A stretch of 63,005 nt of DNA, filler included, from Folioceros fuciformis (lineage: Eukaryota): NCBI GenBank assembly GCA_049999805.1. It is 3 parts of 3 records of this genome, joined end to end, with 100 filler letters (N's around TTAATTAATTAA, not from the genome) between each part and the next. Parts side by side here need not be neighbours in the genome. Positions count along the whole stretch, not along the records: positions 22,694 to 46,651 come from JBNGIO010006337.1; 2 more parts are not named here. One strand, 5' to 3'. Positions 8,960-52,042 of this stretch are shown here, piece after piece; the first letter of the stretch is position 1, and every line of letters begins with the position of its first letter. The translations under genes were made by a program, and so were the position numbers. Below the pieces are notes generated by a model. The model saw only the letters and a program-made list of their open reading frames with translations, had not been told where the DNA came from and searched no databases.

Positions 8960-9504
8960 TGCTCTGCCCCGAGCTGCAACCGCTGCGTCCAGCGGGAATT
9001 AAAGGTGCCTTGGATCCGGACCAGAAGCCATGCAGATTTCTGCTGTCCAATTCATGGCCGGTGCGTCATCTGTGCGCCACAAGTACGGCAAGGTGCCGTG
9101 CCGGGGGATGCCATATTTAGTAGCAGGTAGGAAGCATGGAAGACGCTGGCAGGCGAGGCGAGGCGAGCTCACGATTGACGGAAGAGCAGGATGATCGCTT
9201 GGTAGTACACCAGAAGTACAGCCAACGGCCAGGCGTCCCAGGACTCTGTCGTACAGCCCCGCGTGATCTCTGGTAACGCTCGCCTTAACTCTCCGTCACG
9301 TTAAGTAGTGTCGATTTTGATTAACTGGATTTCGACTAGGAGTTAAAGGGATTCGCGGCTCTCCCGCTCTCCGGTGCAATTTGGGTGACGTCGTGGTACA
9401 GCACAGATTGGAGCCCGAGGACTTCAGTAATTGGTGGCTGGATTGGAAGCGTGTCTGATGGGAATGAACTTCTTGGTTTAAGGATCTCAAGTCTCGGCTG
9501 CGAC

Positions 9505-10378
9505 ATGGTATATGCTGCTATGGCCTCGTTTCCCGTAGCCTTACAGCTCAACAGATAGGAATTCGCGTCTGTGGTGGTATAAGAGAAAGGATTCCGACAG
9601 GGTGTAGGGTGCAGGTGTTGGTTTGTTCAGCTACTGATTTTTGTCGTTGCCAACAGTCTGTCACGTTGCACACCAACCTTGGGGACATCAAATGTGAAAT
9701 CTACTGCGATGAGGTTCCTAAGGCATCGGAGGTACCAGGTTGTGTCTGGGGGAAGTTGCACTCGGATTTAGGGTTTCCAGGCTCACCTTGTTTTCTCTGC
9801 AGAACTTCCTGGCTCTGTGTGCCAGCAGCTACTACGATGCGACAACGTTTCACAGGAACATCAAGGGTTTCATGATTCAAGGGGGAGATCCCACGGGAAC
9901 AGGCCGTGGGGGCACCAGCATATGGGGACGAAAGTTCAATGATGAAATTCGGGAGTCTCTCAAAGTACAGTTTGAGTTAGCTCGTCTCGTGCATGGTGCT
10001 GCTCTTCTGTTTAGGATGTTCAAGATCTCACGAGAGTTTCCGTTGCAGCATAACGCGAGGGGCGTACTGTCTATGGCGAATAGCGGACCCAATACCAATG
10101 GCAGCCAGTTTTTCATCACTTATGCCAAGCAGCCACATCTGAATGGACTGTACACCATCTTTGGGAGAGTCATCCATGGATTTGAGGTGCTGGATGTCAT
10201 GGAGAAGGTACTGGAATCCACCTCGTCACCGCTTTCCGTTGACCCCCATTTTTCTCTGATCTTTGACATTTGAAAAACGCTTTGTAATTCGCAGACTCCA
10301 ACTGGAGCTGGAGACAAGCCTCTGGCCGAGATCAGGTTGAATAGAGTGACGATACATGCCAACCCCTTAGCAGGTTGA
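9505..10378 (+). CDS. CYP18-1: Cyclophilin-type peptidyl-prolyl isomerase, PPIL3/CYP18-1 ortholog
   Basis: ATG-only first exon, [54 protein letters not shown], ends TIHANPLAG*; 5 exons. Confidence 0.95.
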
Positions 10379-12159: not shown

Positions 12160-15100
12160 ATGGCAGACGAGAAGAAGAAGGAGGAGCATCATGGGGGGAA
12201 GGCGGGATTCGAGCAGAAGGCGTTCGAGGCCCTGGAAAGGGATTTTCAGGAGGTATGGATTTGGTTGAGGCCTGCCTTGACTAGCTCGCTGTGCAGTTGT
12301 GCGGTGGCGGAGAAGGGATTGAGGTGCGTGCATGCACGGTGTTGGTGCAGGTTTTGCAAGAATTGCAGGGCGACAGGAGCCTGGATCGGTTTCGGGTGGA
12401 GTATGAGAAGCTGCACAGAGCGCTGAAGAAGTCTCATGGTTCGGAGTTTGAGAAGTCCTTTTTCTCCGAGCACAGGCTTGGAAGGATTTCTTTTTCTTTT
12501 TTTTTTCTTTTGTTTGTGACGCTACGGTGGCTCATGCGCCGATGTTCCGTGCAGAGAGTGAGAAAAGGTTGATAAAGAAGTGCCGGGAGCTCAATACTGA
12601 GATTCTGGCGAATGCGGGTAAGGTGCAAAATGCGCTGAAGCTGAATGAGGAGGACCAGAACACCATTATTGCGTTGAAGAAGGAGATCGACAAGGCATGG
12701 AAGATGGTGGATGCCTCCCAGGAAAAGGAGGCGAAGGCCAAAGACAATATTATGTAGGTCTTGGCGCTGGTGCTGGTACTGGTTGGTTCTGTGGATGGAT
12801 GCAAGTCTTGTAGTCAGATACGGATGTGGGTACGCTGTGGAGTTGTGTCTATACGTCTGCTCGTATACGTCTTTTTTTATCTTAAACATCATGTAGGGAG
12901 CTGAAAGCTGAGATTATAAACTTGAGCAAACTGGTTGAGCAAGGCGCTGATCTTAGCGTTGGACAAGATTCAGCGGTAGATTTCAGGGCATTTAGGGAGA
13001 TGTTGGAGGTCAAGATCGGTTTTCTGCCTGCTAATTTTGCAGCTGTTTGTTTTCCTGGCAGGTCAAGGACTTGGAGAAGGACAAGGATCGGCTGGCTAAA
13101 GAGAGGGATGCCCAGGTGCAACAGATTGTTCAATTGAGGAATGAACTTGTGGAGATGGAGGAGCGGTTCAGGGTTGCGGAGGCTGACAAGGCTACACTTC
13201 AGCATGAGCTTATTGGCCTGAAAGAGCAGGTTGCTGTTAAAAAAGCCGAATGTGAGAGGTAACCTTCTGACTTTATCGTGAGGTGGAAGGATTTTATTTG
13301 GCTTTGTCACTTGTGGTAAGTGAGAAGCCCTGGCCTTTGTCCAGAGAAGCGAAGAAGAAGGAACGTATGGAAAAGGAGATGAAAGAGCTGAAGATGACAC
13401 TTGATGGAAGGCAGACTGAGATCAGGCAGAAACAGTTAACTATCACGCAGGGTCAGGAGCAGGTTACCAAACTGGAGTCAATGTTAAGAGAGCAGAAGCA
13501 GGCATCAGAAAAAGCTCAAAAGGAACTTGATCTTGTCACTCAGCAGGTATTGCTGCTGAAATGAGTGGTGGAACGCTGGTCGTCTTGTTCTGGAGTCTGA
13601 TGGATAAGATTTGATGAACACCCTGTGGTTTTATCGGCATTATAACAAGTGGCTCTGCGGGTAAGAGAGCGTCACCCTCTGCGCTGATGATTGGACTCTT
13701 TCTGTATGGCAGGTTACAAAACTTACAACTGACCTTGAAGATCAGATTCTCAACAATACCACGCTCCTAGCAGAGAATAGTCAGAGACAGGTTGAACTCA
13801 AGCTTAAGGATGATGAGATTGAAACAGTAAAGGCGGAGGTTTTTCGTGTAAACAAGGTCTGCAGGCACAGCTGAGAATCATGCCATTTTGTGACTTTCTT
13901 GTGTTCTTGTGTTCTCATTTTCTCTCCTTACCTATTCCTATCTTCTTGTTGCACAAGTGTTCAGCTTCGAGATGCAACTGTTCTCAAACTGAAGGCACTC
14001 GAGAAAATGAAGGAAGAGAGTGAGCAAGAAAGGGAGGAACTGCGCGCTGAGATACTTTCTCTTGAGAAAGACGTTGAAGCACAGAAAAAGCTCGTGGAGC
14101 AGGAACACAGACGACAGGATGAGCTTTGTCGAGAGCGTGATGTGTTGAACAAGATGAAGACTCAGGTGCTGCTCTCATCCTGTCGTTAGTCAGTTTGTTT
14201 GTCAGGTATCACAGCTCACCAGTGTATTGTTGGTATTTGTGTGAAACAGGCAGAAGCTTCAACGCAGAAACAGGCTGATCTGGTGAAGATAAACGAAGCC
14301 ACGAAGAATAATTTGGAGCTGGAGATCAATATGTATAAATATGCGGCTCAGAAGCAGGATAAGCAGATTGCAAAGTTGGAAAAGGAAAGGCAAAAGTTTG
14401 GTGCTGAAGCCTCGCAAGCTGCATCCAAATACATGCAGGTAGGAAATAGTTGGAAGTGGGTTTTGTCAGTGGGGCGACACTCTTTTGGAGAGGAACATGT
14501 CCCTCAGGTATATACTGTGAAACTTACATTTCTTCTCACAGGCTCTGGACGAGGTTAGGGCAAGGGAAATGAGTATCGTAGATCTTCAGAAAAAGGTTCT
14601 TGAGGGTGAAAATAAGCTCAAGCAGCAACAGACTGCGTATGAAGCTGTACGGAGTGAAAGGAACCTGTATAGCAAGACGCTACTGGAAGTTCAGGATGAG
14701 ATTCAGGAGCTGAAACGTAAATTCAAAATCATGACTCATCACATCGAGAATTTGAAGGAGGAAATCAATTCAAAGGATCTTGCGTTAATCAAGGAACATT
14801 ACGACCATACCAAGGTGGACTTAATTCCGGTGGTTCCCGTGGTCTTTCTCCTTGGATCAAGTGCCAACAGTTAATCAGGACCTCAGATATCCAAGTGTGT
14901 GTTTCCAGGTTGAGAAGGAAAAGGAGGTGTTGAAGCTTGAGCTTAGCAAATCGACTGCAAGTATCAAAGAGGTGGAGGCCCAAATCTCAGAATACCAGGC
15001 CCAGATTGAGAACCTCAATCACATCATCAATGAAGCAGACGATGAGGGCCAACGTCAAAAGAAAGAGCTTGAAATCATTAAGCACGAGCGTGACCTTCTA

Positions 15101-16227
15101 GGCGCACAGGTGACTCTCCACGGAAGGTGCACATGAGCTGTTGTATTTGCAGGCTCCCTGTACTGTCCAATCGATCCCTTCTGAACCGATCTGCAAATAC
15201 AGCTCATCCGCAGGAATGAGGAGCTCGCTCTGCTCTATGAGAAGATACGGATTCAGCAGTCAACTCTAAACAAAGGACAAATTCAGTATCGGGACAGGTT
15301 GAATGAACTAAGGATCCTCAAAATTAAAATGACAGACTTGAAAAGGGAGCATTGTCTTTTGTCGGGTTCTGTCAAAAATTTGGACGTGCTGAAGAAGGAA
15401 GTGCACAACCTGAATAGAGAACTTCTTCAAGAGCGCACGAAGGTACCAACCTGTTTTCATCGTTTAGTACTTGGTAGAATTGGCTAGCATCGCACGATGA
15501 CACGAATCCTTGGTTTAATCAGGTCAAGGCTTTATCGGAAGAACTTGAAACTCCTCTCAATGTGCATCGCTGGCGCAAACTGGAGGGCACGGATCCAGCA
15601 GCTTATGAGATGATACTCAAGATCCAGACTTTACAAAAGCGTCTCATACTCAAGACAGAGGAGGTGACGCACGTCCACTTTGCCTTGCCCTGGTCACTTC
15701 TAGCTCCTCAAGCCAAGGTGACGTTCATGGATGTAAGGAGTTGGTGCTTTATCTGCAGGTTGTAGAGAAGGACCTCCTTATCCAAGAGAAGGAGAAATTA
15801 TATATTGAATTGCGGAGTATTTTGGCCCGACAGCCTGGCCCTGAGCTGCAGGAACAGCTTGCAATGTACGCCAAGAACTTGCGGGAGAAGACTCGGCAAA
15901 TGAAGGCAATGGCCTCTGAGCTTAGCATGTACCAGGTATACGAATCTCTGTTCTTGTCTGAGACGGAGGCATGACCAGGATTTTGAAACCCATGCTGCCG
16001 TTGGGCTGCAGACGCAGGTAAATGAATACAAATTCGAGATTGAGCGATTGAACGGTGAGGTTGATGCGACCAAGAAGAAGTATTTTGAATTCAAGAAGAA
16101 GGAGCTTGCTGAAAAGGAGAGGAAGAAGTCCGTGCAGGTTGGCCAAACAATCACTTCTGCTCAGCATCCAATGGTTTTCGGTGGTGGATATAATATGAGC
16201 GCTCCTATACCCTCGATTGCGGGATGA
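12160..16227 (+). CDS. CFAP58: Cilia- and flagella-associated protein 58 (CCDC147/FAP189)
   Basis: Multi-exon coiled-coil gene: AFEALERDFQEVLQELQGDRSLDRFRVEYEKLHRALKKSH, YEAVRSERNLYSK, NVHRWRKLEGTDP, ILARQPGPE, FGGGYNM near the C-terminus. Confidence 0.93.
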
Positions 16228-22593: not shown

Positions 22594-22693
22594 NNNNNNN
22601 NNNNNNNNNNNNNNNNNNNNNNNNNNNNNNNNNNNNNTTAATTAATTAANNNNNNNNNNNNNNNNNNNNNNNNNNNNNNNNNNNNNNNNNNNN
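22594..22693. other. Assembly gap with TTAATTAATTAA linker
   Basis: N-run/TTAATTAATTAA/N-run, a stop-in-all-frames scaffold linker; same pattern at 46652-46750. Confidence 0.9.
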
Positions 22694-23042
22694 TTGTCAC
22701 ACTCTGCCATGGCCGTGCCCGCGGCAGCGTTGCTGCGCCTGCCGGCCTGCCAGGTCCTGGTCCTGGCCCTGGCCCTGGCGACGGAGATGGACGCGCAGGA
22801 AGCCGGAGCCCCAGCACGGCGCGTTTGAGCCTGGCAGCTGCCGCTGTCTTGGAAAGAAGCAGATGCGGTGGCAGCTGCGCATTGTCGCATTCACTCATGC
22901 GCTGGATGCAGAGGAGGGAATGCTGGTTGTGGCAAGAGAGGAAGGAGGCGGACGCGGGAGGTAGGGGAAGAGGGGGAGGAGCAGTAGAAGTTGGAGTAGG
23001 TGTAGGAGGAGGAAGAGGTTCGGTGTAGAGGTGCTCTTGCCA

Positions 23043-25234
23043 ATGCCTTCTGCTGTGTTCTCGTCCGAGTCCGGGCTGGAGAGCGACAGTGTGCATAACA
23101 CGTCCTGTGCTTCTTCTGCGCATCCGCATCATCCCCGGAGCTTGTTCTCGCTTTCCGCGCAGCAGCAGCGCTACAGCGCCTTGCAAGCGTCCATGTCGTC
23201 TGGGGACAGCTTCATTCAGGCGCGGAATCTGTCCCTCGGCCACGGGTTCATGGCTAGCCGGGTGTGGAGTCCCTTCCCCGGCATTGCGCAGGGGCAGGGG
23301 GCGCACGACGTTTGCCCGCAGCCGGTGATGGTGGAGAAGGAGCTGGTGGCGGAGGAACACGACTCTAACAACGAGCACGGTGCCGGGGGCCTCGCGGAGC
23401 ACGACTACATGTCGGATGTGTCGTCCGCGCCGGCCGAGGAGAAGGAGAGGAGCGACTTTAAGGGGGACGACGCGTTGGATACCGACTCCAACCTCAACAT
23501 GCGGGAGACGGAGCTGAGGCTCGGCCCGCTCGGGCCGCCCCCGTCGGGGGAGGACGGCCGTTTGCCGCAGGCCGGGGCCAAGCGGGGGTTTTCGGAGGCC
23601 ATTGGTGGCTTGTCAGAATCCAAGCGCTCTCTGTCGGATCCGACGGAGGCTAAGCGCTCGTTTCCTGAAGCTACCAATGGAAGTGGGAATGGTAATGGGA
23701 ATGGGAGTGGCGCCGGGGATGCTGGAGAGCTGCGGGCCCGAAACGGCCCTCCCGGGAGCACGGCTCTTGCTATGAAGTCGCCTTGTTTCTCTGACCATGG
23801 CGGGCTCAAGGACTGCAGCGACGGCCGCCCTTGCTTCCCCTCGCTCTTCGGCGTCTACTCTGCGGCCAAGCTTGGCGTGGCCGGGCCCGTGCCCATGCCC
23901 GTGGATGCGGATGGCAAGCTAGGGAGCGGGAAGCATCCTTCGGGTTTCCGGGTCCCCAGCCTGCCTCCTCCATGGCAGGGTCTGGAGCAGTCAGCGGGCT
24001 CGTTCGGGCCTTTTCCGTCACAAAAGTCCCCTATAGAGGCGCCTCCTCCTGCCAAGTTCATCGGAGAAGGGGGTAGCATGTGCGGCCGTGACATGAGCTT
24101 CTCTTGGGAGAACAACAGGGTGTCAAGAAGCAGCGCGGGCGACACTACTGCTACCTCCGGCCAGTGCAGCGCCTTCGCTTCCGAGGGTTCCTCGGTTGAG
24201 AGTGGAAGGAAGGGTGTTGCACCCCCTTCCGAGGTGGCTGCGTCTCCTGTCGGCAGGTGTGGTCGGCCGCGTGATATTCGTTTTCTTGGAGTGGGGTTTG
24301 TTGGGAATTGTAATGGAGCTGATCGTGGAGTGATTGGATTGGATGCAGATCGGCGCCTGTGGTAGGATGGCCGCCCGTCCGCGCTGTTAGGAAGAGCAGC
24401 GTGCCTAGTCCTCCGCCTCTGAAGGGTGGCGAGAACCTGTGTGCCTCGGCCTCACCGGGCAAGGCGACGCTGGCCTCTCCTTCGGTGCCCAGGCCTGTCC
24501 TGGAGGGTTTGCCCAAGGTGATGCGGCCTTCCGCGGACGCGGGGCCAAGGGCCAGCAGCAATCCTTCTCCTACGGCGGTGTCGTCCAACTATTGCTTCGT
24601 GAAGGTGTACATGGACGGGATTCCATTCGGGCGGAAGGTGGACCTGAGGATCCACAGCTGCTACGAGAAGTTGTCTGTGGTGCTGGAGGAGATGTTCACT
24701 CGCTACGGTAGGGTTTGCGTGTCCGATGGTTGCGTTGTGGCCATGTGCGACCATGTGGGTGAGCTGGGGATCATGCTAATAACGCTTGTGGTTCCGTGCA
24801 GTGGAGCAAAGCGCCACAGGTGATGGCAAGCCACTGAAGCTCCTTCAGGGTTCGGAGTACGTGCTCACCTACGAAGACCAAGACGGAGATTTAATGTTGG
24901 TTGGAGATGTGCCATGGACGTAAGTGAAGGGAAAGGCGTGTGTATGCTCAGTCACGCTGGATGGTGGAATGGTTTCCAATAGGAGTCTGATGGTGTTGTT
25001 TCCCGCTTGCTCTTGCGTTTCTGCAGCTTGTTCATTGGATCCGTGAAGCGCTTGCGCATCATGAAGCGGTCAGAAGCAGCCTGCATCCGTAAGTATTTTC
25101 AGTTGGCCGTCAAGGGTTGCGGTTGATGCTTTCCAAGAAGAAATGGGAGGTGATTTATGTGAGTGTGTGTTGGTGACGGCGGGTGTGCAGCTCCGAGGAA
25201 TAGCCCGAAGCTGTGGAAAGGAGGAGCGACTTGA
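23043..25234 (+). CDS. IAA: Canonical Aux/IAA auxin co-receptor/repressor with long N-terminal region
   Basis: Domain [13 protein letters not shown], degron [12 protein letters not shown]1 [17 protein letters not shown] and [20 protein letters not shown]...[12 protein letters not shown]; exons ~23043-24256, 24349-24707, 24802-24919, 25027-25088, 25191-25234. Confidence 0.95.
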
Positions 25235-28090: not shown

Positions 28091-29578
28091 GAGCATGCCA
28101 TGAAAAGATTCTGTGTCGGCTGCGCTCTATCGTGGAGACAGTGTGCGAGCCACATGCGTGGCGCTCGTCACAGTGATGCGCTGTGACATTCTTCCGGGAA
28201 CCCCGTTGTCGTTTCCGGGCCCCAACGCTGACCAGGCTGCACCAATGTCACAAACACTATTGTATGGTTTGATACCATGCCCCTCTTTGTGAGATGGGGA
28301 GCCATGGCCACCAACCCACGTCCCTCTCTCTCGCTCCATCCCCATTGCACACGGCAGCATAAAAGCAAACATGCCGAGCTCCCGTTCTGCATCTCCATCT
28401 GCCTCCTCAGCAATCTCATGTATGGCCGACCTTTGGCGGGGTCGTCATAACTGTTTTACGAGGGACGACGCCTCCACTCCTTCATTGGACCGACAAACAT
28501 CACTGTTACGTATGTAAGGGCGTTTGCAAAGCCATAGCCCTGCCCTCCATAGGACCAGATCCACTGCAGGGACCGGAACCGGGTCCGGCTCCGGGGCCCA
28601 ACCACCTGGCTAGTACCTCTCCGCCTGCCCCTCACTCGGATAAGAGAGTGAAGCAAGCATTCCATACGGCCAGCTGCTGTTCCCAATACTCTCACCTCAC
28701 CCACTAAAGGGAAAAAGAGAAAAGGTCACAAGGAGAGAAAGCAAGAAAAGCAAAGCAAAGCAAAGCAAGAACCCCTGGTAACCCTATCCTACCCTACCCT
28801 ACCATGCTCCAGTCTTCCATATCCTTAGACCTACTTGCATGCCCCTTTGACCCGATCCGAGCAATTGCAACAACCACAACGCAACGCAGCATGGGCCATA
28901 ATCACGCGGCTCCGGCGGGACGTGAATCCCGACGCCACGGTCCCTCACGAAGAGCCATCTCAAATGCCTTCCCTCCCCCCGAGACACCGTGATAATCAGA
29001 GCTCTGCATTCTGGTCCCCTATTGCCGTTTCTTGCCTCACCCTAGGGGAGCAGTGACACCCCTGTGATCACTGCACTGATGCTGCAGGCATCATGACATG
29101 CTTCCCGTGCTTCGATGCCCTGCAGCAAGCGCAGTGCCGCGTGCAGCAGGCCAAGAGATGGCCCATGGCCAGGCGCTATTCATCACTACTACAAAGTAAT
29201 TGAAGGCACGAAACCCGAAGCGACAGGTCGACATGCTCATGTCTTCGTTTGCATCATGCTAAGCGCAAAGTCACCGTATCCATAATCTGGGGTCTAATAA
29301 CAGAGTGTCTGGCCGTAATGCATGCCGTTCCGGATCATTGTGATCTCACTGCAGCGTAACCGTAACTGTTTGTATTCTAGCTGTATACATCTACGGCGCG
29401 GAGAGGAGACACCGCAACTACCTTTCAAATGTTCTAAGCCACAAATGCAACGCATCCCGCGCATGTTGCTATTCCGAATTGCGTATGAAGCAACGTGCAC
29501 ACCCAACCGGAGTGAACAATTGAGTGCTTCGATTGAGTGAACTTGGAACAATCGGGTGGTCTCTAGATTCCAAAGATC

Positions 29579-30700
29579 ATGATGGAAGTTGGGTGTAGAA
29601 ATGCAGATGGTTCTTTATTCAGCCACAAACGTGCCCCTTCATTGTTAAGACTCCTTGCCCAAGACCTTTCTCAAAGAAAACCTTGGAATGGCAAGATGTT
29701 GTGCACACTGTCAAGAAGAAAGTTAGTCTCGTCAAAACTTGTTACATGCCATGAGAAGATATGTAGATTTCATCGTTGGGAAGGAGGCATCAAAATTCTT
29801 TGCAACGAAGTTGGTAAGGGTGAATGTGTGGACACGGTCAAGCATGAGGCAAAATGCAATCTCTCAACCACTCCTTGCCATTACATGAAATTCAGTTGTG
29901 CTTTTGGTTCCCGAAAATACAGTTTCACGGGAATCAAACATTTATGTTGATCTCACTAACAAACCAAAGACAAGTGCTAGCAGTAGGCGCTCTAAAGTGA
30001 TGTGTGGGGAGAGTAAGAAGCATGGATGCCAATTTTTGGTGTTTCTCAGCCAACTTGAAATGTTCCCTGATGTAGCTGAATTACGATTACATGAAACACA
30101 CCACATCGATTCCACAGGGCAATATTGTCATGGAGCGCTTACCATCAACTCAAGTCCAAATTGCATTCTAGCTTCTTACTTATCTATGGCCAAAAAGGAA
30201 GACATCAGCCTTTCACATCATGAGTCTGATGTTTTCTTACGAAAGCAAGGTGATCCACAAGCAGTGCTGCATAGGGATGATTTTCTCATTCCTAGTGACA
30301 TTAGGAATTCACAAGCTGAACTTGATGCCAAGGTATGGCATACCAAGAATAGAAGACCATGCCACAGACGTCATGCTAGGCATCTAGAGTGATTTTCAAA
30401 TGTAGACTATGCTCCGTTGGGGTCACAACTCGATCATTTATATGGATGCCACATTTGGCACCAACAAATGGAAGTTCCAGCTCTTCACAATTTTGGAATT
30501 TGATGACCACTTCAATGCCATTCCTGTGGCTTGGGTTGTCACATGTAAGGCCACATCATATACTATTTCAGAGTGGTTGCATTGCTTGCATGAGAAGATG
30601 GTACAACATTAGTCTACATGGCAAAATCATTCATTATTGCTTGCTGGAATCATGAATGTGTGTACATATACCATTTTTGTGATTATATGGGTGGACAAAA
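29579..30700 (+). pseudogene. MULE transposase remnant, truncated within the DDE core
   Basis: SKKHGCQ...H, RDDFLIPSDIRN, WGHNSIIYMDATFGTNKWKFQLFTILEFDDHFNAIPVAWVV; same family as 18550-20520. Confidence 0.8.
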
Positions 30701-31099
30701 GATGCTTCCACTTTAAGCCACATCTTTCGTTTTTTAAATATAGAATGTGGGGAAGTCTTATAAAAGCCAGCACGGTGCAATGCCTGCAGGGCAAAGTATG
30801 AAAGAAATAGTGGCAAGGGTGGTAGTTAGGAGGGACATTATCACTATAACCCCTACTATGGATAAGCAGGAGCAAATGACAAGAGCAGTAGACAATGACA
30901 AAGGCTTGTTTGCTGGTTGTAAATTCATGTTTGCATGAGAAGATGCGGGTATGGCCGTGTCTAGGACACCTATGAACAAACCTTTAATGCTTGGTGTTCT
31001 TGGGCTGTAAGCACAACATGGTTTTTCTACGTGTGGTCTAGCTAGTGTGCTCCTTAGCTCTGAAATGGCTGGAAACAAGTCCTCCACATACATTGCATC

Positions 31100-31495
31100 A
31101 GCTTGTAAAACAATAACGCTTGCAGGGTAGTGAGCAGTGGTTCTCTTAATGGAGAATAGGCAAAAGAAATGCCTTCTTTGCAACCTTCTGAGCAAAGTTG
31201 AGGCTTCTCCTCTCACTTCTTTCATACTAACCTCCTCCAAAGTCTACCTCATAAAATCCCTTCTGACTGCGAAAGCGGTTGCCCATGTCTTGGAACTTGA
31301 ATCTGCAAGCAGTAATCGTAAACGATAATGCAGCTTGCCACTTACAACTTCGTTACATTTTTTGCACCAACCATTTGGGGAGATCGCTGGGAAACAAGTA
31401 ACACACCCTCGATACACATCTGAGCCTGCATCATAATCCTCAACAATAATGCGCAGTAATACATAATCAAGTTGCATAGGTTTATCTTCTTCCAA
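31100..31495 (-). CDS. RPA70 C-terminal-like Zn-ribbon/OB-fold ORF inside the MULE (interrupted by one stop)
   Basis: VYRGCVTC...WCKKCNEVV...HYRLRLLLADSSSKTWATAF matches the Rep_fac-A_C pattern YxxCxxC...CxxC...YxLxxxxxDxSGxxWxTxF; continues past a TAG at ~31244. Confidence 0.65.
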
Positions 31496-32714
31496 CTAAG
31501 CAATCTCCAAGCGCATAACCAAGTTGCATAGATTTAGCTTCTTCCAACTAAGCGATCACCGCTTGGAGCTCAATCCTCACCGTGCGCTATGGAGCGTGAA
31601 CTACGAAGCCTGCTTTCGGTGCGCACTGCTACGCTGTCCTCTCAAAACACAAGCAACCACGCAATGTAACTTGATACGCGTTGTGAGGTATACGGCGTTG
31701 TCACGTAACTCGCGCAAGGTATTTGTGCTGTATACAAACAGCTGGAATACAAACAGTTATGGTTACGCTGCAGTGAGATTACAGTGGTCCGGAACGGCAT
31801 GCATTACGGCCAGGTACTCTCTGTTATTAAAGCTCAGATGATGGACACCACGGTGACTTTGCGCTTAGCATGATGCAACCTGACCATGCGACCTGACCAT
31901 GCGACCTGACCATGAGACCTGACCATGACGACCTGGCGCTTCGGGATTCGTGCCTTCAATTACTTTGTAGTGACGAATAGCGCCTGGCTGGCCCATGCGC
32001 CACAACCCATCTTCCATGGCCATGATTGTCCCAAGCATGGGTGCCATGGCACTGCCTCCACTCTGGGGCCTGGAGTATGGAGTCCGGACTCTCTGGCGAT
32101 CTCCAGTCTCTGGCTATGGCAGGAGTACGGCTGACAGCCAGAATCCGGCAGGGATCAGGGTTAGGGCTCGGGAATCGGACCCGACTCACGGTCGGACGGT
32201 GGCAGATGAAGCCACGCCTCTCGGTCCCCAGCAAAAGTGGCCACTTCGACCTTTCCCCAACTCTGACACCCTACTTTTCTGCCCGCCCTATGTGCTATTC
32301 TGGCCGCGTCTCGATCCCTTGCACGTTTGCCCTAACTCGGAACCTGGGCCCACCACCGCTACGCTTTTCTGTACCTTGTACTACCTACACAACAGTACAT
32401 ACGTACTGTATTATGCAGTTTCTGTCCATTTGACCTACACCGATTCTCATTCACCGAGCTCATTCACTTCGTACCTCCTCTTTTACTCCACCTACCACTT
32501 GAATACATACATACAAGCGTATACACACGGTGGGACTGCACACGTACGTACGTCCACGCTGGGAGCGTGAAGTGAAATGCAGTGCAGCGCATTGGAGCAC
32601 TTGGGTGCTAGGAAAGTGAAGTGACGTGGATGAGGTTTGTGTCCATGCTGGCCTGGCGTGGCACTTGGCGCAAGCTGGGAGCAGGAGCGAGAGCGTCGTC
32701 CTCATCCTGCGAGG

Positions 32715-35700
32715 ATGGCCATGGCCTCGGGCGAGCCCTGGTGGGATGTGGTGCAGCTGCGGCTGCCGGAGGTCCGCTTGGAGCATCTGCTTCGATGTGG
32801 TTTGAGGCTCGGTGATGCCCAGCTCCTGCTCCAGGCCTTGCACCGGGTGCTGGATCGTGCGGGCCGGGCTGGTCCCCCGGCCCTTTGGAGGGGAATTTCT
32901 CGGTTCCTGCTGCGGCCTTCGCATCCCTTCGACCTGCACCGGCTGCTCTACTCGTGCAGCTTTCGGGATTGGAATTCTGCGGAGCAAGGGCCTCCGCCCG
33001 CTTGGATGCCGTCTTTGTGAGTAAGCTGGTTATGTTGTGGATGTGTGTCGGGGGATGGATTTGTTTCTCACCTGGAAGGGGGCTGGGTGTGGGTTGAAAT
33101 CAGGGCATCCGCGGAGGATACCAACGTCGGCCGGATCCTCAAGTTGGAGGGTAGGCAGCTGCTGGGTGGTCGGTGTCAGGATGTGGTGTCGGGATTTGTT
33201 GAGTTGCAGAAGCTGTCCGTTGAAGATCCGGAGGTGGGGTTACGTGTGTCATTGAACTCGAGTGCCATGCGGTGATGGGATTATGGAGACTGACTGCCGG
33301 TGGTGTGCCTGGATTAGGCTTACTGGAGCCTTGTGCTGGAAGAGCTGGATGTGCCTTTTGTGGACCACCCGTCATGTATTGTGGATACCAGCACGTCTCC
33401 GGAGGGGACGTGGTTACCTGGGGCCACTCTCAATGCTGCCTCCTGGTGCCTGCAACCCAACTCTCGCAAGGATGGGCTAGATGTTGCAGTTCTGTGGAGA
33501 GATGAAGGGAACGATGACTGGTTGCAGTCTTTGACCCTGGATCAGCTCAGGGCAAGAGTCTGGTAACGAACGAAGCGTCTGATTACCACATGCTTTTACT
33601 CTGTCGCTGCCATTTGTCCGGTGAAGATGTAACGGCATCACAACGTCCTTGTTGTCTTTTTCCAGTCAAGTGGCAAATGCCTTGCGGATCTACGGCTTCA
33701 AGAAGGGCGATGCCATTGCCATTGACATGCCCATGACAGTGCACTCGGTCGTCATCTACCTGGCCATTGTCCTTGCAGGATGTGTTGTGGTTTCAATAGC
33801 CGACAGCTTTGCCCCAAGAGAAATTGCCACCCGCCTACAAATATCCAAGGCTAAAGCCATTTTCACTCAGGTATGCCCATTGCACGACCCATTCAACACT
33901 ACGTATTGCATGTATTTCTAGACAGACATGTCTTGACATTGTTGTCAGCTTATTGTGTTACCTCAATTTCATTCATGCTCTTCGCCTTGTGGTTCTTGAT
34001 AACTGCCTCAGGACGTCCTTGTGCGTGGTACAAAGACACTTCCCTTGTATTCGTAGGTACCCTGACTATCACCGTTGGATTCCTGATGTAATTCGGGCCA
34101 GTCTTTCACTCTTGGGCTGTGTTTCACAGTCGAGTTGTGGAGGCCAATGCTCCAGCTGCGATTGTAATCAACGAGAGGAGCCATAGCTTGCCTGTGTCCT
34201 TGAGGAAAGGTGACATATCTTGGGAATATTTTCTCGCTCTCGCTGATAGCCTTACCAGGTCTGTGCTTTGCCCATCCCATGATATTTTTCTTGCCTTGGC
34301 TGGCTGCGTACTTTTTCAAACTTCTTTCATTCATAATGACTTGCAGTCCATTCGAATTTGAGGCTGTCGTCCAGCCTGTGCAAGCCTTCTCAAACATTCT
34401 TTTCTCCTCTGGAACAACAGGCATACTCTTTGCTCATCCATCTCTTTAATAGCTCATTATCGTAGTAACACATTGCTGAAGATGACCACGGCTGGGCACA
34501 AGATTTTTCTCCTCTGTGACGCAGATTTTTTGTGACGGTTTCCATTCTGGTTTGCTCTGTGAGCTCTCAACCATGTCAGGGAGCTGATATATCTGAGATG
34601 GATTTTAACAGGAGATCCAAAAGCAATACCCTGGACACATCTTGCTCCTATAAAGGTTGCAGCAGATGCGTGGGCTCATCATGACCTAAGACGACGGGAT
34701 GTAGTTGCATGGCCCACAAACCTGGGATGGATGATGGGGCCGTGGCTTGTATATGCGGCATTACTGAACGGCTCAACCATTGCTTTGTACAACGGGCTCC
34801 CATCTGGCCGTGGGTTTGCCAAGTTTGTGCAGGTACCTCAGGAGGCACAACAAAGTGAGATGATTGAGCCATGTTGTCTGCGAATTTTAGCTGACCCCCC
34901 ACTACCACCACCACCGCCTGTTGATTTGCAGGATGCTAGGGTCACGATGCTTGGTGTCGTGCCAAGTATTGTGAAAGCATGGAAGAGCACGGATTGCGTG
35001 GCTGGATTGGACTGGTCCAGCATAAGGTGATGTCTTGGATGCGATTCTCTTCCATCCACTTTTGGTTCACATTATTGGGGTTTTTGCGTCTCTCAAGTTG
35101 GTTTCTCTGTTGAAAAGGTTCGAACTAACCTGATTTCATTCCTGTGAACTCTGTACCAGATGTTTCAGCTCGACAGGGGAGGCCTCGAATGCAGATGATT
35201 ACTTATGGTTAATGGGAAGGTCAAATTATAAACCAGTAATTGAATATTGTGGAGGAACGGAAATCGGAGGAGCTTTCGTCACTGGCTCTTTGTTACAACC
35301 CCAAGCATTAGCGGCGTTCAGCTGTCCAGCGATGGGATGTGCTATAACCCTCTTAGATGAGAGTGGGGTGCCCCTGGTGTGTGTCATGTTCACCTTCAAC
35401 ATTTCTGGCACGTCCTTCTTCCCTTGCTGTAGCCATGAAGTATACACTCAATGGCTATGTGTTACCTGTGCATTATGTGGTTGGCAGGCTGTAGATAAGC
35501 CAGGCATGGGAGAGTGTGCTCTGTATCCATTCATGCTTGGAGCTTCATCAACTTTGTTAAATGCAGATCACTTTCGGGTGTACTTCAAGGGCATGCCCGT
35601 GTACAATGGGAAGGTGAGAACTTCCAGGTTAGCTGTCACGTGCTTATAGTTTGGAGTCCCAGCATCTAACTTGTACATGGGCACATCTTGTAGATTCTAA

Positions 35701-36907: not shown

Positions 36908-38708
36908 TCATGAAGGAGAGCCGGCAGGTACGGTAGCAATTCTACTCGCAGAAGCCCTCAACGCCGATCTGGAGGCCTTGGCGAGGAGTGCCTTGTAGTC
37001 AGCACTCTGAGCCCACTGATCTATCTCCCGTGCCCTCAGGACAGGCAACGGGTGGGAGAGCTGCTCTGTCTGTGCGTTCCTGCGGAGTTGTATATGCACA
37101 GCCAGTCAGCGGGTCGAAGGTGGATATATTTGTAGTGCAAGCATCAACCAGAACCCCTGTTCAGTAGTCAAACCTGAGATACCATCCCAGAGGACTCTTG
37201 GATGCGTCGTCGTAAGACCTGGCCTGTTTCAAAAAGGCGTCCACGTTCAACTGGTCCGCAAGAGACGGGCACCCGCCTGCAAGCTTCATAAGCACCGACA
37301 CTACAACCTGCACAGGCGAATCGAGGCCTAGACTCAAGCTTCTTGGACAAGCAAAAGGAGTTTAGACGGCCACAAAAGGAAGTACTACGGACCTTGGGAT
37401 CCTGAGCTACCAGAAGAGCTGCCCTGTCACAAGTGAGTTCGGCTGCCCTTAGCCATCTCATGATCTGGTCTTCCAAGTTACGAGCAATCACACCACCAAG
37501 CCCTGACGAGGTAGACACACAACGAGGCGTGTCATGGGGCTTGAGACAATGGTGGATTTGCAGCGAAGGAAATGAGCCGTACGCACCTGGTAGGGAGTAT
37601 GCACCTAGTGCAATGATGTTTGCGAAAGTAAGCCAAATGCCATGGTCGCACTTCAAATGCCCCAGCTCATGCGCCAAGACTGCCTGCATCACTGGACAAC
37701 AGTTAATGCAACCAGGCGCATTATCATGCGCCACAGCACGTTCCAATACTGTCAGACACTTCGAACAAGGGTTTGCGCATTTGACGAAGGAACATCAAAC
37801 CTGTAGTTCTCTCTTATCCAGAAGCTCCACAAGGCTGGTGTGTATTACCACGAATGGTCTCCGTCCAGATATGGCCAGTGTGTAGGCATTAGGGTTTGGG
37901 TTTTGGCGCACGTACAGGTCTGGGGCCTCCAGGCTCAATATGTTAGCAGCCTCTATCATGAGATGGTGCAGCTCGGACAGCTGTGGAAAACTCCAAGCTA
38001 GAATGTCAGCACGCTTCTTCACAGCGTTCCACAAGAGAGGGCTATGTAGAGCAGGGGAACACCTGTTCCTCGCTGACTAGCACAGACTTGCCAATATTTT
38101 CCATAAGCATGACCTGCTCCGCCACCGGCCCTACACCAGACATAACACACCAGCTGTCACAAGGCCACATGCACACAGGCTGAATCACTGACCATGCCAC
38201 TCCTGAAGAGAATCAAACCATGTCCTGCAATTCCGCCCTGCACCATACCTAGCAACAGCTTCCCGACATCTCTAACCCCAGGAATCGCACGTAAAAGCGC
38301 CGTGTTCTGCAAAGGGTCAACCCACGTTCAGCATACGCGACCTCCCCGATGCAATCCTCCTCGAGCTCAGCACACAGAACCAACCTGCCTATCCAGAGGG
38401 TGCCTGAAATCATCTGCTTGTAAGTTCGGGAACGCCAGCCCTGCACTGACCTTGAGCGACCGCCACGACCGTCTCAACACAACCTGGCTACCATCACATC
38501 CCATCCCTCATTAATCATTTACTGCAACAAGCTGACCCAGCAACCCGTCCTCTGGCTCAGCCACTCCCCAACCCCGGCACCCCTTACGAGTCCGCACCTT
38601 CGAGCCAGTGCACATCCACCCCAAATCCACCCCCAGAGCGCCCGCAGAACCCAGAGGGCGACGCCGTCCTGCACAGGAAGGAAGTAGCACGTGCACCCGC
38701 AAAGCCAT
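36908..38708 (-). CDS. PGM48: M48 family zinc metallopeptidase, plastoglobule PGM48-like
   Basis: Transit-peptide-like N-terminus, LQADDFRHPLDRQ, PDLYVRQNPNPNAYTLAISG, AVLAHELGHLKCDHG (HExxH), WLRAAELTCDRAALL, SHPLPVLRAREID. Confidence 0.92.
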
Positions 38709-46100: not shown

Positions 46101-49100
46101 CTGCGACTAGGTTTTTGAGGAATCGGGGAGTCCAACGTGCGAAGGAACTGCGCCAGCAAGAATGTTTTTGGAGAGAAGAACTAAGTTGGCTCCAAAGGCG
46201 AGGTGAGGAGAGGGACTCCACAATCGAAGAAGAAGCCCGGAAAACAGAGGTATAATGCGCTTTGGCCAAGTTAGAAGAAGACAGTGCTAGAGGTTGGTTC
46301 AAATGGGCTAAAGTTAAGTGGGTCAAGGAAGGGGACAGTCCGTCGAAATTCTTCTTCGACAAGGTAGCTGCGAACCGGCATAGGACGCGCATTCCTGCGC
46401 TCCCGAACACTCAAGGGGTGGTACAGGAGTTGCTTGATGGTTTGAAAAAGCTCATTACCCTTTTCTTTGTGGGAATTTTTTCTAGTGTTGGGAAGGTGAC
46501 AGTGTGGGAGCAGCTATGGTTTTTTGCGTATGGGTCACTTTCGGCTAAAGTGTCTGAAGCCCAGCGGAAGGCGTTGGATAAGCCGATTACTGTAGAGGAA
46601 GTGCTCCAGGCTCTGAAGGGGATGCCGAGGAATAAATCCCCAGGTCATGACNNNNNNNNNNNNNNNNNNNNNNNNNNNNNNNNNNNNNNNNNNNNTTAAT
46701 TAATTAANNNNNNNNNNNNNNNNNNNNNNNNNNNNNNNNNNNNNNNNNNNNATGCAGGGCTCTGGATCAGTCGATAACTGCCAATGAGGTGTTCCGGCCC
46801 CTAGAGGGGATGCCGAGGGATAAATCCCCAGGGCATGATGGTATTCCCCCTGAATTCATGCTCTGGGGTTGGGAATTTATGCAGCCACTATTCATGGAGG
46901 CGATTAACACGTGCTGGGAGTATGGTAGCATTGGGGGTTGGTTCAATTTGGGGGTTATCTCCCTACTGCCTAAGCAAGAAGCCAGTTTATCAATATCCAA
47001 CTGGCTCCCGATTACCTTGCTCACTACCACGTACAAGGTGATTGCTAAGGTACTGGCTAACCGAATTACTCCATTTCTTGATGATTGGATTGAGAAAGAA
47101 CAGAGAGGATTCATTTAAAATAGGTGCATCCTGGACAACCTACTTCTTCTGAGGGAGGCTAAATACAATGCACAGGTACAGAAGAAAGCTGCTGTTTTCA
47201 TTTCCCTTGACTTCTACAAGGCCTATGATTCAATTGAGTGGCATTTCCTATGGCGATGCCTATGTAGTTTTGGCTTTGGGAATAACTTCTGCAGATGGAT
47301 AGCCATTTTGTGTGAATACGCAGGTGCCAAGGTAGCTGTCTGCTTCTTTTACGGAGTGTTTCGCAATCTCCCGGTCGATACGTCAGGGATGCCCCCTTGC
47401 TCCGTTTTTATTTATTATCGTCACTGACTTCTTTCTTAGAGTTGTCAAGCAAGACCTGGCAGTGGTGGGTAATCGGAACTCAGATGGGACACAATTAAGG
47501 GTTTCTGCATTCGCAGATGAGACTCTTCTTTTTTCCTCGGCAGAGGAGGCCTCATTAAAAGTGCTGCTCCAACAGGTTAAGGTCTTTGGTGAGCTTACGG
47601 GTTGCAAGGTGAACTGGAACAAGACGCGCATGATGTGTCTTCACATGGAGAGAGAGCCCCCTCAGTGTATTAACCATATCAGGCGAGTGACCCTGGGGTC
47701 TACTCACAAATATTTGGGGCTTCCTTTCCAAGAAAGGGATGAGAATGGGAAGATAGGGAAGTACATCTGTCTTAGGTTCATTCGAAAAGCGGCTGGTTTA
47801 CAATTGTTGGAGCTCAATTTGGCAGGTAGGTTGGTGGTGATCAACCATATCCTAACTGCAACTCTTTGGTACTATTTGTTTTTGTGGGCCCCTTCTAAGT
47901 CAGAGGCGAGGCGCTTACAACAGGTGCTAACTTCTTTCCTGTGGAAGCGTTCAGGAGATAGTATGGCAGAGTGTTCTAAGGTGTCTTGGCAGCATATTAT
48001 TCAGCCGCGCAGATTGGGAGGTCTTGGGGTGGTGGACCCGGTTGCCAAGATGAAAGTTTTGCATGCGCAGTGGGTTGTTAGGGCAGCTGATCCGGCCTAC
48101 TATCCTTGGAAGAGCCTTCTAACACAGCACTTGGATTGCACCCAAGCTGTCCCCAGGTGTAGGAGGCATATAGACAACATTCTGGCCGACAAACTACTAT
48201 TGGATACTACAGATTGCTCCCCGCTTTTTAAGTCTATTTGGAGTAGTTATCTGGAGGTCAAACATTATGTTCTTCCGGGCAACTTCTCCCATGTGGATGA
48301 TGTTCTTGGTATCCCTTTGCAGGGTTTCTCGAGATTATGGGTACAAGACTTCAGGTCTAGGGTATATCGGTCACAAATCTTCGGGCTGGCTTGTCGGAAA
48401 GGCGTTATCCGGCTTGGACATTTATGCAACAGAGTTGAGTCCTGCGGGAAGGAAGTAGCAGAGGTCAAAGGGGAGTTTGGCATTGGGGCCCGGCACATCA
48501 GGTTCATTTTTTCATGGTTGCACGAGGGATTAGATGAAAAGGTGCAACAGCTCGTAAGGCAGAAACCTATCATGGGAGAGGAAGGGTGGTACGCTTACTC
48601 CATGGATAGTAGGGGAAGCGAGTCAGAGGAGGAGGATAAGCATGACGAAGCAGTGGATTTGGATAGGGCGATATGGTTTGCGAGAGCTGATGGCAAAGAG
48701 ATGCTGGAGTCGTTCCAGGTCGTGGCTCCTGACGGTTCTCTGGAAGTGCAGGGTAGGGACGATGGGAAAAGCCGAGGGGGAGAGCTGCGGGCTATCACTA
48801 TCCTCTGTAAATCCGCTCGGGCAGGGCGATGGTACATGGCAAGCGAACGCCCAATTAAGTCACGTACCTCCGATAAAACAAAGGTTCAGTGTTGGTTCCG
48901 ATTAGGTGAGAACTAGGCTTTGACCTTCAGACCAGATCTTTACAGGTGGCCCAAGCGTCCGGGGTGCAAGAAGGATACTTCTCGATCTTTCTTCAACTTC
49001 CCAACGGCGGATTTATTCTTCTGGTTGGTGCGAGCGCAGAAAGTCAAGCTAAGACAACCAATGGCGCCCTGACTGCAGCTATCTAGACGACGACAAAGGG

Positions 49101-49680
49101 AAGCCATCAAGCTCCTATGGAAGTCTGCAGGAGTCCCACCCAAGGTCAGGTTTATGATTTGGTGTTTCTTTCAAGCGTGTTTGACTAATGCGGATCGCTG
49201 GGATGGGCTGTTAGCTGCAGCGGGTGAGAATGTGTGTCGACTGTGCACCGAGGGGGCTCCGAACAAGAGCCAACACATATTCTTTCATTGCAGTTTTGCT
49301 CAAGAGATCTGGAGGGAGGTGGGCAGGTGGCTTCGATTGATCTTTCCTAGTGCTAACCTAAGGATCACGAGTCAATCAGCCCTATTCGGGTTGGACGCAG
49401 CCTCAGGCAAGCCTCTCCTGAAAACCCAATGGTAGGGCTTACTGTGGTCTTCGTGTCTCTTTCACCTCTGGGCCAACTGGTCCGCGGTGGTTTATGGTGG
49501 ACAGAAGTCAGCCTCCCCGAAAGCTTTGCTCTGGCGCATATGGGAGCATTTATTGATAGCAGCAGAAGCCCTTGAGCAATCCCGACGAAATCAGTTCAAG
49601 AGGAAAGACTGGAGGACGGCGGGTCTCCTATCGCTTGGGAAAGATCGCTGGAATCACTCGTGCCCCTGGGGAAGGTGAGT
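40145..49680 (+). mobile_element. L1-like LINE retrotransposon(s), degenerate: ORF1 with zinc knuckle, ORF2 with EN-RT-zf-RVT
   Basis: ORF1 WVGLPALP...YPDLPIRCGVCGLQNH; ORF2 IISWNVRGLG (45160), LAGDFN, RLDRFY, SDHHP, KSPGHDG, LDFYKAYD, RQGCPLAP, AFADET, KYLGLP, CRLC...HIFFHC; many stops and frameshifts; gap at 46652-46750. Confidence 0.9.
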
Positions 49681-49970: not shown

Positions 49971-51058
49971 TCAATCGGCTAAGGTGAGCTTGACTCCGGT
50001 TGGAAGTGGTACTGGAGCAGGATGAGCATCTAAGAGCTTGATCCTATCTAAAATTTGAAGAACGTACTTCGACTGGAGTAGAGATAGCGTGCTTTCCTTT
50101 CTATCTCTACGGATTTGTACTCCGAGACAGTACTCCAAGGGCCCTAAGTCCCTCATCTTAAACTTGGCAGCGAGCATTTCCTTCACATCAACAAGCATCG
50201 TCTTTGGATGATTTGTGAACGGAATGTAGTCGTCTACATATAAGGCAAGTGCAAGAAATTGCTTTCCTTTGCGTAGTAGATACAGGTTCTGGTCGGCATG
50301 GGTCTTAACAAATCCAATGGTAAGTAGAAGGGTGTTAGTAAGTTGGTAAAATTTTGCAGGTGATTGCTTAAGGCCGTATAGACCCTTGAGCAGCTTGCAT
50401 ACCCATGTGGGCCTTTCAACATCTTCATACAAAGGTGGCTGCTCCATGTAGATTGTTTCCTTTAGTGTAGCATAGAGGAATGCTGTATAGATGTCAAGCT
50501 GATGTACATCGAGATCGTACTCGGCAGGAGGTGCCAGTAGGAACCTAATTGGCTAGGCAATCACCACAGGTGTGTAGATGTTGTCACCATAATCAATCCC
50601 AAGCCTCTGACTGTAGCCTTTAGCCACAAGCCTTGCCATAAGTCTTTCTGTAGTTTCGTCAGACTTCAGCTTTCGTTTGAAGGTCCACTTACATTTGATG
50701 GCCTTGCGACCAGGGGGTACGGGGGTGAGCACCCATGTCTTAAGTTCGAGTCATATTCTTGTTGGATTGCCTTCATCCATCCTTCCTTTTTAGATGATTT
50801 GAGGGCTTCTTCTAAGCTTGCGGGCTCAGGAACATGGTTTGCAGCCAGCATTGCTCTTGCCATGAGATTATTTGGGGCGTCGATCTCAGTGCTTGTCTCT
50901 ACAGGCGTGTTTTCAGTCTTAGGAATGTGAGGAGCAACTTCCGCGATGATGGGCTGCTGAGGAGTAACTCTTGGGACATGATAGGCATCCAGATAGGCGG
51001 GGCACCTACGAACTCTGGTAGATTGGCGTCTCTCCGGAATGATGGTTGCAGCTGGTAG
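49971..51058 (-). mobile_element. Older Copia element, RT part (host of nested insertion)
   Basis: EPASLEEAL...WMKAIQQEY, HQLDIYTAFL, VCKLLKGLYGLKQSP, LYVDD, MRDLGPLEYCLGVQI. Confidence 0.88.
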
Positions 51059-51614
51059 TGTTAGCGGAAGCATGGAAGCCAAACCCAGACTAAAGCAAAA
51101 AGGAATATTGCATTAATTAAAAAACAACTCAAAGGTCACTTAAATACAAAAAGGTTCATAACCTAATTTAACTAAATAATATTAACCCTAGGTAGGTTGC
51201 TTTAATCAGGGTTAACCTAACCCGTAACACTCCCTCTTAACCTACCAGGGATAACCACATGCAACTCAAACCAGCTCTGAGTTACACCGAGTGTATCGCT
51301 TCTTCAACGGAACGTAAACGGGCACCATTTAAAGCCACGTTACTTCGCCGTTACCACTCGTGCCACCATTACGCTCACTGCATCTTCCTGAGACCTCGTG
51401 ACGCCGGTTCACATTTGCAAGCACAGAGCATGGAGCCCGCTGCAATTCTGGAGCTCTTAAGCTCGATCGTCATGGGCCTCTCAGCAACTCTGTTTCTGAT
51501 CGCGACGGGTGCATCTCGACAGAGACTAGTGGAAGCCTGAAGACAGACAACTCGCGTCGACGTTCCACAAGGGCTCTGGCGTAGCTCTCCAACCCAGCAG
51601 CAGTCGCGGCAGAC

Positions 51615-51875: not shown

Positions 51876-52042
51876 TTTGCGCTTTACGGCTTCATCCACT
51901 GTGTGTATTCTGAAAGCCTGTCAGCTCATGTGTAGGTGGAGAGTTTCCTCCAGACAGAAAGCAGCCTTCCCAGCTATCTGAAACTGTAAGAAACACACTT
52001 GTTTGCTCATGACTGACAGGCTGTAGCCACTTTTTTTGTACT

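Follow-up and report, generated by a model that had tools for sequence, protein, structure and literature searches.

A degenerate Mutator-like element of Folioceros fuciformis with an RPA70-like zinc-ribbon reading frame facing its transposase relic

A stretch of 63,005 nt from the genome of Folioceros fuciformis (assembly GCA_049999805.1), hereafter the window, consists of three joined parts, with positions 22,694-46,651 coming from the record JBNGIO010006337.1, and contains a Mutator-like element (MULE) of 2,821 bp at positions 29168-31988. The element has MULE-type ends, which recur at other insertion sites, and its interior is repetitive in the genome over its full length. The present copy is dead and non-autonomous. 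It carries a relic of a MULE transposase on the plus strand and, facing it on the minus strand, an open reading frame (ORF) resembling the zinc-ribbon OB domain of RPA70, which is inactivated by an in-frame TAG. Taken as a whole, the element is best explained, with a confidence that only slightly exceeds an even chance, as a dead deletion derivative of an old multi-copy MULE, the progenitor of which already possessed the OB-like gene in convergent orientation.

Element ends and the transposase relic

The locus had originally been described as a complete MULE with long terminal inverted repeats (TIRs) and a perfect 9-bp target site duplication (TSD). A repeat search of the window resolved the two TIR arms (29168-29384 and 31738-31988) into five collinear inverted-repeat blocks, and their alignment with MAFFT showed 193 identical positions among 214 ungapped columns (90%), with 40 gap columns. 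The arms measure 217 and 251 nt, respectively; this difference is mostly due to the right arm, in which a ATGCGACCTGACC-like unit of 13 nt is tandemly repeated about four times at 31873-31924, compared with one degenerate unit in the left arm. A perfect TSD of 9 bp, TGGCCCATG, abuts both termini, at 29159-29167 and 31989-31997. Long TIRs and a TSD within the 9-11 bp range of the class are both features of MULEs and, together with the MULE-domain relic described below, they bear out the assignment of the element to this type. The 22-nt terminal sequence occurs twice in the window, once per element end, with no occurrence expected from 100 shuffles. No second copy of the element was found in the 63-kb window by blastn, which returned only the element itself and its own arms, and no Rfam family reached its gathering score in the window. 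An inverted repeat at 30387-30409 and 30610-30632 (23 nt, 83%) was taken as chance-level, several others of that size being present in the repeat list of the window.

Protein domains were searched with 24,736 Pfam models in all 232 frames of the window that span 80 or more codons between stops, and further in a set of 55 proteins comprising 53 frames of 30-79 codons that overlap the element and the two large plus-strand frames. The predicted transposase remnant was found in the plus-strand ORF 30406-30612, which matches the MULE domain (PF10551; E=1.7e-4, 22.4 bits, under the cut-off of 27.6) over profile positions 1-42 of 99, as well as the related ZSWIM1-3 RNaseH-like domain (PF21056; E=2.8e-4, 21.2 bits). 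Among the 53 small ORFs of the element these were the only Pfam matches, besides one noise match with E=0.048. A word-index homologue search with the MULE fragment against longer proteins gave no match at E<=0.01.

Plus-strand frames begin at 29567 and 29889. The 167-codon frame 29889-30392, located upstream of the MULE fragment and in a different frame, had no Pfam match at E<=0.05 and is probably the N-terminal part of the transposase; a stop-free run of this length arose in 26 of 1000 shuffles of the element interior. It contains a C-x7-C...H-x2-H pattern reminiscent of a WRKY/FAR1-like zinc finger, a label that was rejected as unsupported in view of the missing Pfam match. Given the partial MULE match and the change of frame, the transposase gene appears to carry a frameshift and to end shortly beyond the region of its first catalytic motif. 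The rest of this gene was probably removed by an internal deletion, the breakpoint of which is placed near 30629/30630 because the MULE match stops at 30612 and several contigs from other copies cease to resemble the element before 30630. As to the completeness originally ascribed to the element, its ends are intact, but its transposase gene is not.

The minus-strand reading frame and its RPA70-like domain

A minus-strand ORF with a CxxC...CxxC motif had been noticed about 230 bp inside the right TIR. This ORF is present at 31247-31495. It comprises 83 codons, with its ATG occupying 31475-31477, and begins 243 bp away from the inner end of the TIR (243-261 bp, depending on whether the frame start at 31495 or the ATG is counted). 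The translation reads C31-x2-C34...C44-x2-C47, then YRLRLLLADSSSKTWATAF. Beyond the TAG that ends the ORF mid-way through the would-be domain (31244-31246), the minus frame continues without a stop for 161 more codons, as far as 30761. Another in-frame TAG immediately precedes the start of the frame, which is only about 240 bp away from the TIR, so that more OB domains would not fit upstream. Among 1000 shuffles of the interior that preserved dinucleotide content, 3 produced a one-stop frame at least as long as the 245 codons seen here, suggesting that the frame was recently an intact gene of about 240 codons and not scrap. It would have been a stand-alone, intronless gene, the start of which coincides with the first strand of the OB-like domain. 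The start of the ORF is covered by a tandem duplication (31462-31560) composed of 47-nt units that are 89% alike at a spacing of 52. With the plus-strand frames beginning as given above and the minus frame at 31495, the two sets of frames converge from positions close to opposite TIRs, and the MuDR-like convergent layout claimed by the original prediction is thus borne out by the positions of the frames.

The 83-codon ORF matches positions 13-73 of the 146-position Rep_fac-A_C profile (PF08646) with E=1.7e-4; its score of 21.9 bits is below the cut-off (28.5). The four-cysteine zinc ribbon, which in this domain is inserted after the first strand, lies inside the matched positions. It is the sole Rep_fac-A_C match among the 232 window ORFs, where sub-threshold matches of similar strength without neighbour support are rare. 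When the frame was read through the TAG with X, the score dropped to 20.4 bits and the match covered profile positions 15-87. A language-model feature search of the ESM-Atlas, which comprises 7.7 million clusters, was led by three Rep_fac-A_C clusters (0.95, 0.92 and 0.90); the first match shared 195 of 256 features, and Rep_fac-A_C clusters supplied 20 of the 30 matches overall. In calibration, at least 170 features were reached by nine out of ten first matches from the same family and by only one to two out of ten chance matches or distant relatives, whereas about one in a hundred shuffled proteins attained 0.95.

The first approximately 90 residues of the minus frame very probably descend from a zinc-ribbon OB domain of the RPA70 DBD-C type. 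The RPA1 zinc-ribbon identity given by the original prediction is supported by both the profile match and the atlas score, but the former is sub-threshold and the likeness covers only the first half of the domain. A strong divergence from RPA1, also predicted, is evident from the protein searches: phmmer with the minus ORF detected no RPA at E<=1e-3 among 1.84 billion representative proteins and none at E<=10 among PDB sequences, where only L3MBTL3 appeared (E 2-4.3). The ORF was certainly not copied recently from the canonical host RPA1. Three matches at E<=1e-3 in the larger set were Cys/His-rich repeat proteins aligned in four to eight short stretches and were judged spurious. Word-index searches yielded no match at E<=0.01, either for the 83-aa ORF against longer proteins or for the 245-aa read-through frame against proteins of near length.

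Other copies of the family in sequencing runs

Further copies were sought in X1 and X2, two public DNA runs from a single sample of this organism, which contain 0.47 and 0.45 of the sampled words of the element. Both perhaps stem from the same sample as the window assembly, which is immaterial for counting paralogues in that genome. Run contigs were aligned at 80% likeness onto positions 28700-32450, with 411 (X1) and 468 (X2) pieces placed. Summed contig depth, which is not equal to copy number, amounted to 88-467 in every bin of 29204-31975 versus 6-14 in the single-copy flank bins, and to 170-372 over the OB-like region 31220-31471. By likeness to the element (at least 99%, 95-99%, 90-95% and below 90%), the pieces were divided into 68, 104, 162 and 77 for X1 and into 70, 119, 191 and 88 for X2, many of them originating from other copies that have diverged by 5-20%. 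For example, two diverged contigs span the TAG together with part of the OB-like ORF, one at 30936-31350 (66 of about 415 letters differ) and the other at 31012-31296 (45 of 285). Five contigs in each run exit the element exactly at 31988 into differing flanks, hence the same end sits at other loci. The depth, the divergence and the differing right-end flanks together indicate a mobile, old, multi-copy family, in which the OB-like sequence is not private to the present copy. The original prediction had opposed its proposal to a fragment held by this copy only, and both the depth over the OB segment and the diverged contig at 30936-31350 speak against the latter. Since TIR depth is not above interior depth, most TIR holders seem to share this interior. 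C>T and G>A are the commonest changes among copies, a pattern expected of methylated repeats that are old.

Other copies also differ in structure. Six contigs in X1 and five in X2 carry unlike sequence before 30630, a region of about 30630-30717 is tandemly duplicated in other copies, and deviations are found between 30200 and 30341 as well. At the 31462-31560 duplication, joints in other copies skip 55, 81, 100 and 163 nt, with the 52-bp repeat missing in several variants. Among the joints listed (15 of 28), none spans the whole element as an empty site would.

A third run of the sample (X3) contained only diverged pieces (0, 7, 56 and 111 in the same likeness classes); its changed places are mostly C>T (87) and G>A (135), and it looks bisulfite-type converted or otherwise deaminated. 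In X4, guessed to be an RNA run, eight pieces were located in three places, namely the TIR ends, positions 28775-29170 of the left flank, and a 129-nt stretch (30341-30469) that derives from another copy; these eight pieces leave the OB-like ORF uncovered and are uninformative about it either way.

Proposed history and alternative explanations

In the favoured history, a transposase-encoding progenitor would have given rise to the present copy through an internal deletion near 30629/30630, which would have taken everything beyond the first approximately 60 residues of the MULE catalytic domain. The resulting copy would be movable only by a related transposase acting in trans, which would bind the ~220-bp TIRs and transfer the element by cut-and-paste. 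Since the 5' part of the transposase gene and the OB-like gene have been retained on opposite sides of the present copy, the progenitor probably had both genes in convergent orientation. Its OB-like gene would have been intronless, about 240 codons long and situated about 250 bp inside the right TIR, the N-terminal ~90 residues of its product being of RPA70 DBD-C-type zinc-ribbon OB origin. The source of the gene was probably a fast-evolving RPA-like gene and not a recent canonical host RPA1, and, by analogy with mudrB in MuDR, it was probably transcribed from the TIR. Our best guess is that it represents a retained accessory or passenger ORF and not an essential transposition factor.

A number of observations weigh against this history. 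While the anatomy of the element is solid, the evidence for its unusual part is thin, consisting of two sub-threshold signals and read depth in a copy that is broken. Both the MULE and the Rep_fac-A_C matches lie under the curated Pfam cut-offs, and a coiled-coil gene among the 232 ORFs yields an unrelated sub-threshold match of similar strength, to WWC1 (2.4e-4). Recognition of the OB domain is limited to one half: the 161-codon part after the TAG has no Pfam match and no usable atlas match (residues 1-75), and the structure prediction advised at the outset did produce a model (single-sequence AlphaFold2, residues 1-140 with X at the stop), but its predicted local distance difference test (pLDDT) value of 35.8 was too low for it to be used. 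Contigs on the element are at most 434 nt long, and none of them reaches from the OB region to either a TIR or an intact transposase; as they are short and unlinked, the summed depth could include another repeat family that shares the OB segment. No full-length autonomous copy was seen among the contigs. Finally, among the differences listed (40 of ~600), two of the six X1/X2 differences inside the minus frame are synonymous and a seventh, found in X3 only, is non-synonymous; they give no sign of purifying selection in a sample that is tiny and too few to judge.

Two alternatives concern the identity of the OB-like segment. Its likeness to RPA could be due to chance, with an unrelated small zinc-ribbon gene or non-coding sequence generating both signals by its CxxC...CxxC pattern alone. 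The profile score below the cut-off and its further decrease upon read-through would fit such an explanation, as would the phmmer output limited to Cys/His-rich repeat proteins, the lack of a PDB match, the poor AlphaFold model, the unrecognised second half and the rate at which shuffled proteins attain the top atlas score. We nevertheless regard chance as decidedly unlikely, given that two methods of different kind picked the same family from all the Pfam models and atlas clusters searched, that the match extends beyond the zinc ribbon into the next strands (to profile position 73, or 87 when read through), and that the number of shared features exceeds the calibrated level of 170. The segment could also belong to a Helitron nested in the MULE, an option named by the original prediction and recommended by the frequent occurrence of RPA-like genes as Helitron cargo (PMC7385966, PMC6431247 and PMC9033089). 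This origin is extremely improbable. Neither strand of the interior (29387-31735) showed a hairpin with a subsequent CTRR-T in a simple scan, no Helitron_like_N or PIF1-type helicase matches were detected in the 232 window ORFs and the 53 small element ORFs, depth is continuous over the whole interior, and the element has TIRs and a TSD.

The remaining alternatives accept the RPA-like origin and differ in the role of the gene. The original prediction went further than the history preferred here in proposing a working second gene. In its full form, the OB-like ORF of intact members would encode an RPA-like protein that binds single-stranded DNA, is produced from the right TIR and aids transposition; the protein may guard single-stranded ends or gaps during excision repair, and selection on the element would retain the gene. 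The convergent layout, with each frame a few hundred bp inside a TIR as in the mudrA/mudrB pair (PMC3276141), is consistent with this proposal, and so are the family-wide presence of the OB segment by contig depth, the long one-stop frame that few shuffles reproduce, the distance of the ORF from canonical RPA1, and the descent of its host element from a transposase-bearing one. However, the ORF is broken by the TAG in the present copy and is recognisable over half a domain, it has no relatives in very large protein sets and hence no visible conserved cross-species lineage, the region of its start codon is structurally variable among copies (joints 31441-31605), and synonymous differences are in the minority among the few listed. 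Besides, the open-access literature searched yielded no description of a MULE that carries an RPA-like gene. We view a functional second gene as possible and rather doubtful, and it is similarly doubtful that the OB-like gene ever helped transposition. It would be slightly bolder still to postulate a MULE lineage of seed-free land plants whose autonomous members encode a convergent, stand-alone RPA70-DBD-C-like zinc-ribbon OB protein driven from the opposite TIR and working as an accessory factor. A role of the ORF in gap repair or anti-silencing is pure speculation.

Conversely, the OB-like ORF could be a passenger similar to those of Pack-MULEs, if a transposase-less derivative had captured an RPA-like fragment from a host paralogue or a Helitron-borne gene and was then amplified, while autonomous elements never had it. 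Such a scenario is unlikely in our view, since the present element retains transposase-derived sequence and is not a classical Pack-MULE, and no recognisable donor of the kind expected for captured fragments, RPA1 or other, is detectable in the protein sets searched. The frame is moreover open for 245 codons with one stop, far past the recognisable fragment, and the relation of TIR depth to interior depth suggests an interior common to most TIR holders. The passenger scenario draws on the known ability of MULEs to capture gene fragments (PMC6431247 and PMC3276141), on the typical association of RPA-like genes with Helitrons, which could have served as donors, on the partial nature of the domain and on the absence of a selection signal among the few listed differences.

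Comparison with known transposons

MuDR of maize is one of the known transposons closest to the element from F. fuciformis. Both have TIRs of about 220 bp, 9-bp TSDs and two facing reading frames, each a few hundred bp inside a TIR. In MuDR, the TIRs hold promoters from which mudrA and mudrB are transcribed convergently, and mudrB is a gene of unknown function restricted to Zea (PMC3276141); in both elements, the second gene is thus lineage-restricted and uncertain in its role. In contrast to MuDR, the present element is an internally deleted dead copy, the transposase relic of which matches the MULE profile below threshold, and its second ORF is RPA/OB-like, being likened to mudrB by layout and not by sequence. 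Pack-MULEs resemble it as non-autonomous MULEs of 1-3 kb that were amplified with non-transposase coding sequence between their TIRs, whereas the present element keeps part of a transposase, and its other ORF is donorless in searches and open far beyond the recognisable fragment.

Transposon-borne RPA is tied to Helitrons in PMC7385966, PMC6431247 and PMC9033089. Like the RPA-like proteins of plant Helitrons, the OB-like ORF resides in a transposon and is probably a rapidly evolving relative of the RPA70 zinc-ribbon OB domain; unlike them, it contains a single partial OB unit instead of several and resides in an element of the TIR/TSD cut-and-paste type, in which no RepHel gene or Helitron ends were found.

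Other Mutator lineages that amplify with a second, non-transposase gene include KI-MULEs, which carry a ULP1-like protease, and VANDAL elements, which carry VANC. Their accessory domains differ from the one described here and are known from intact copies, in the case of VANC also from experiments, whereas the present element is known from a broken copy.

Genomic surroundings and feature coordinates

The coordinates of the element features are summarized in Table 1. The element lies in GC-rich sequence (58-59%) between an AUX/IAA gene (frame 24323-24820 on the plus strand, E=2e-20) and an AMP-binding/acetyl-CoA-synthetase-like gene (33318-35027, plus strand), the latter followed by a gene for an M48 peptidase (37171-38076, minus strand). 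At the insertion site, both TSD copies read W-P-M in open frames that enter the element from either side, and the plus-strand frame formed by 29057-29167 and 31989-32570 is continuous over more than 220 codons once the element and one TSD are removed. Neither part of this split frame has a Pfam match; it may have arisen by chance in GC-rich DNA or may represent an unannotated exon interrupted by the insertion.

Table 1. Features of the Mutator-like element at 29168-31988 and of its target site (positions in the window)
Feature	Position	Strand	Basis
TSD, left copy TGGCCCATG	29159..29167		identical to 31989-31997
Left TIR, 217 nt	29168..29384	+	193/214 ungapped columns shared with right arm
167-codon open frame, probable N-terminal part of transposase	29889..30392	+	no family match
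MULE domain fragment with first acidic motif region MDATFGTN	30406..30612	+	PF10551, PF21056, sub-threshold
Probable internal-deletion breakpoint	30629..30630		MULE match end at 30612; contigs of other copies
Continuation after the TAG, 161 codons, no recognisable family	30761..31243	-	no Pfam match, no usable atlas match
In-frame TAG truncating the OB-like ORF	31244..31246	-	read from sequence
83-codon OB-like ORF (resembles the N-terminal half of Rep_fac-A_C)	31247..31495	-	PF08646, 21.9 bits; atlas 0.95
Tandem duplication over the start of the OB-like ORF	31462..31560		missing from some other copies
Right TIR, 251 nt, with 13-nt tandem repeat at 31873-31924	31738..31988	-	repeat search, MAFFT
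TSD, right copy TGGCCCATG	31989..31997		read from sequence

Elsewhere in the window, we identified genes for a ZIP metal transporter (7563-8998, minus strand), a cyclophilin (9722-10270, plus strand) and a POT/NRT1 transporter (60840-62742, minus strand), as well as the central coiled coil of the cilia/flagella protein CFAP58 in four consecutive plus-strand frames (14190-15484, E 5e-11 to 3e-28). CFAP58 and the AUX/IAA frame, taken together, point to a land plant whose sperm are flagellate, as in bryophytes, lycophytes, ferns, cycads or ginkgo. A minus-strand frame at 1-273, cut by the start of the window, matches a Myb/SANT-like DNA-binding domain (Myb_DNA-bind_4, E=3e-6, above the cut-off). 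Other transposons are represented by a Ty1/copia element that has RVT_2 frames in addition to an open gag-protease-integrase frame of 1056 codons, by further copia fragments and by a non-LTR relic (RVT_1 plus zf-RVT); the copia and non-LTR frames are located at 49974-56634 (minus strand), 47119-49432, 59047-60922 and 1934-2344 (plus strand). The window includes 586 N, with X runs in frames near ~22640-22700 and ~57390-57490 marking gaps in the sequence.

Implications

The message of the locus itself is modest, as it is a silenced, dead copy of a transposon. In PMC7385966, PMC6431247 and PMC9033089, transposon-borne RPA fits the single-strand rolling-circle mechanism. If the OB-like gene did serve as an accessory gene, a cut-and-paste DNA transposon would have brought its own single-strand binder, a link so far made for rolling-circle Helitrons. 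If a MULE family was indeed amplified together with an RPA-like gene, RPA-like ORFs alone would be insufficient for Helitron calls in the annotation of plant genomes, and the question would arise whether some cut-and-paste elements use such a protein of their own, for example in post-excision gap repair.

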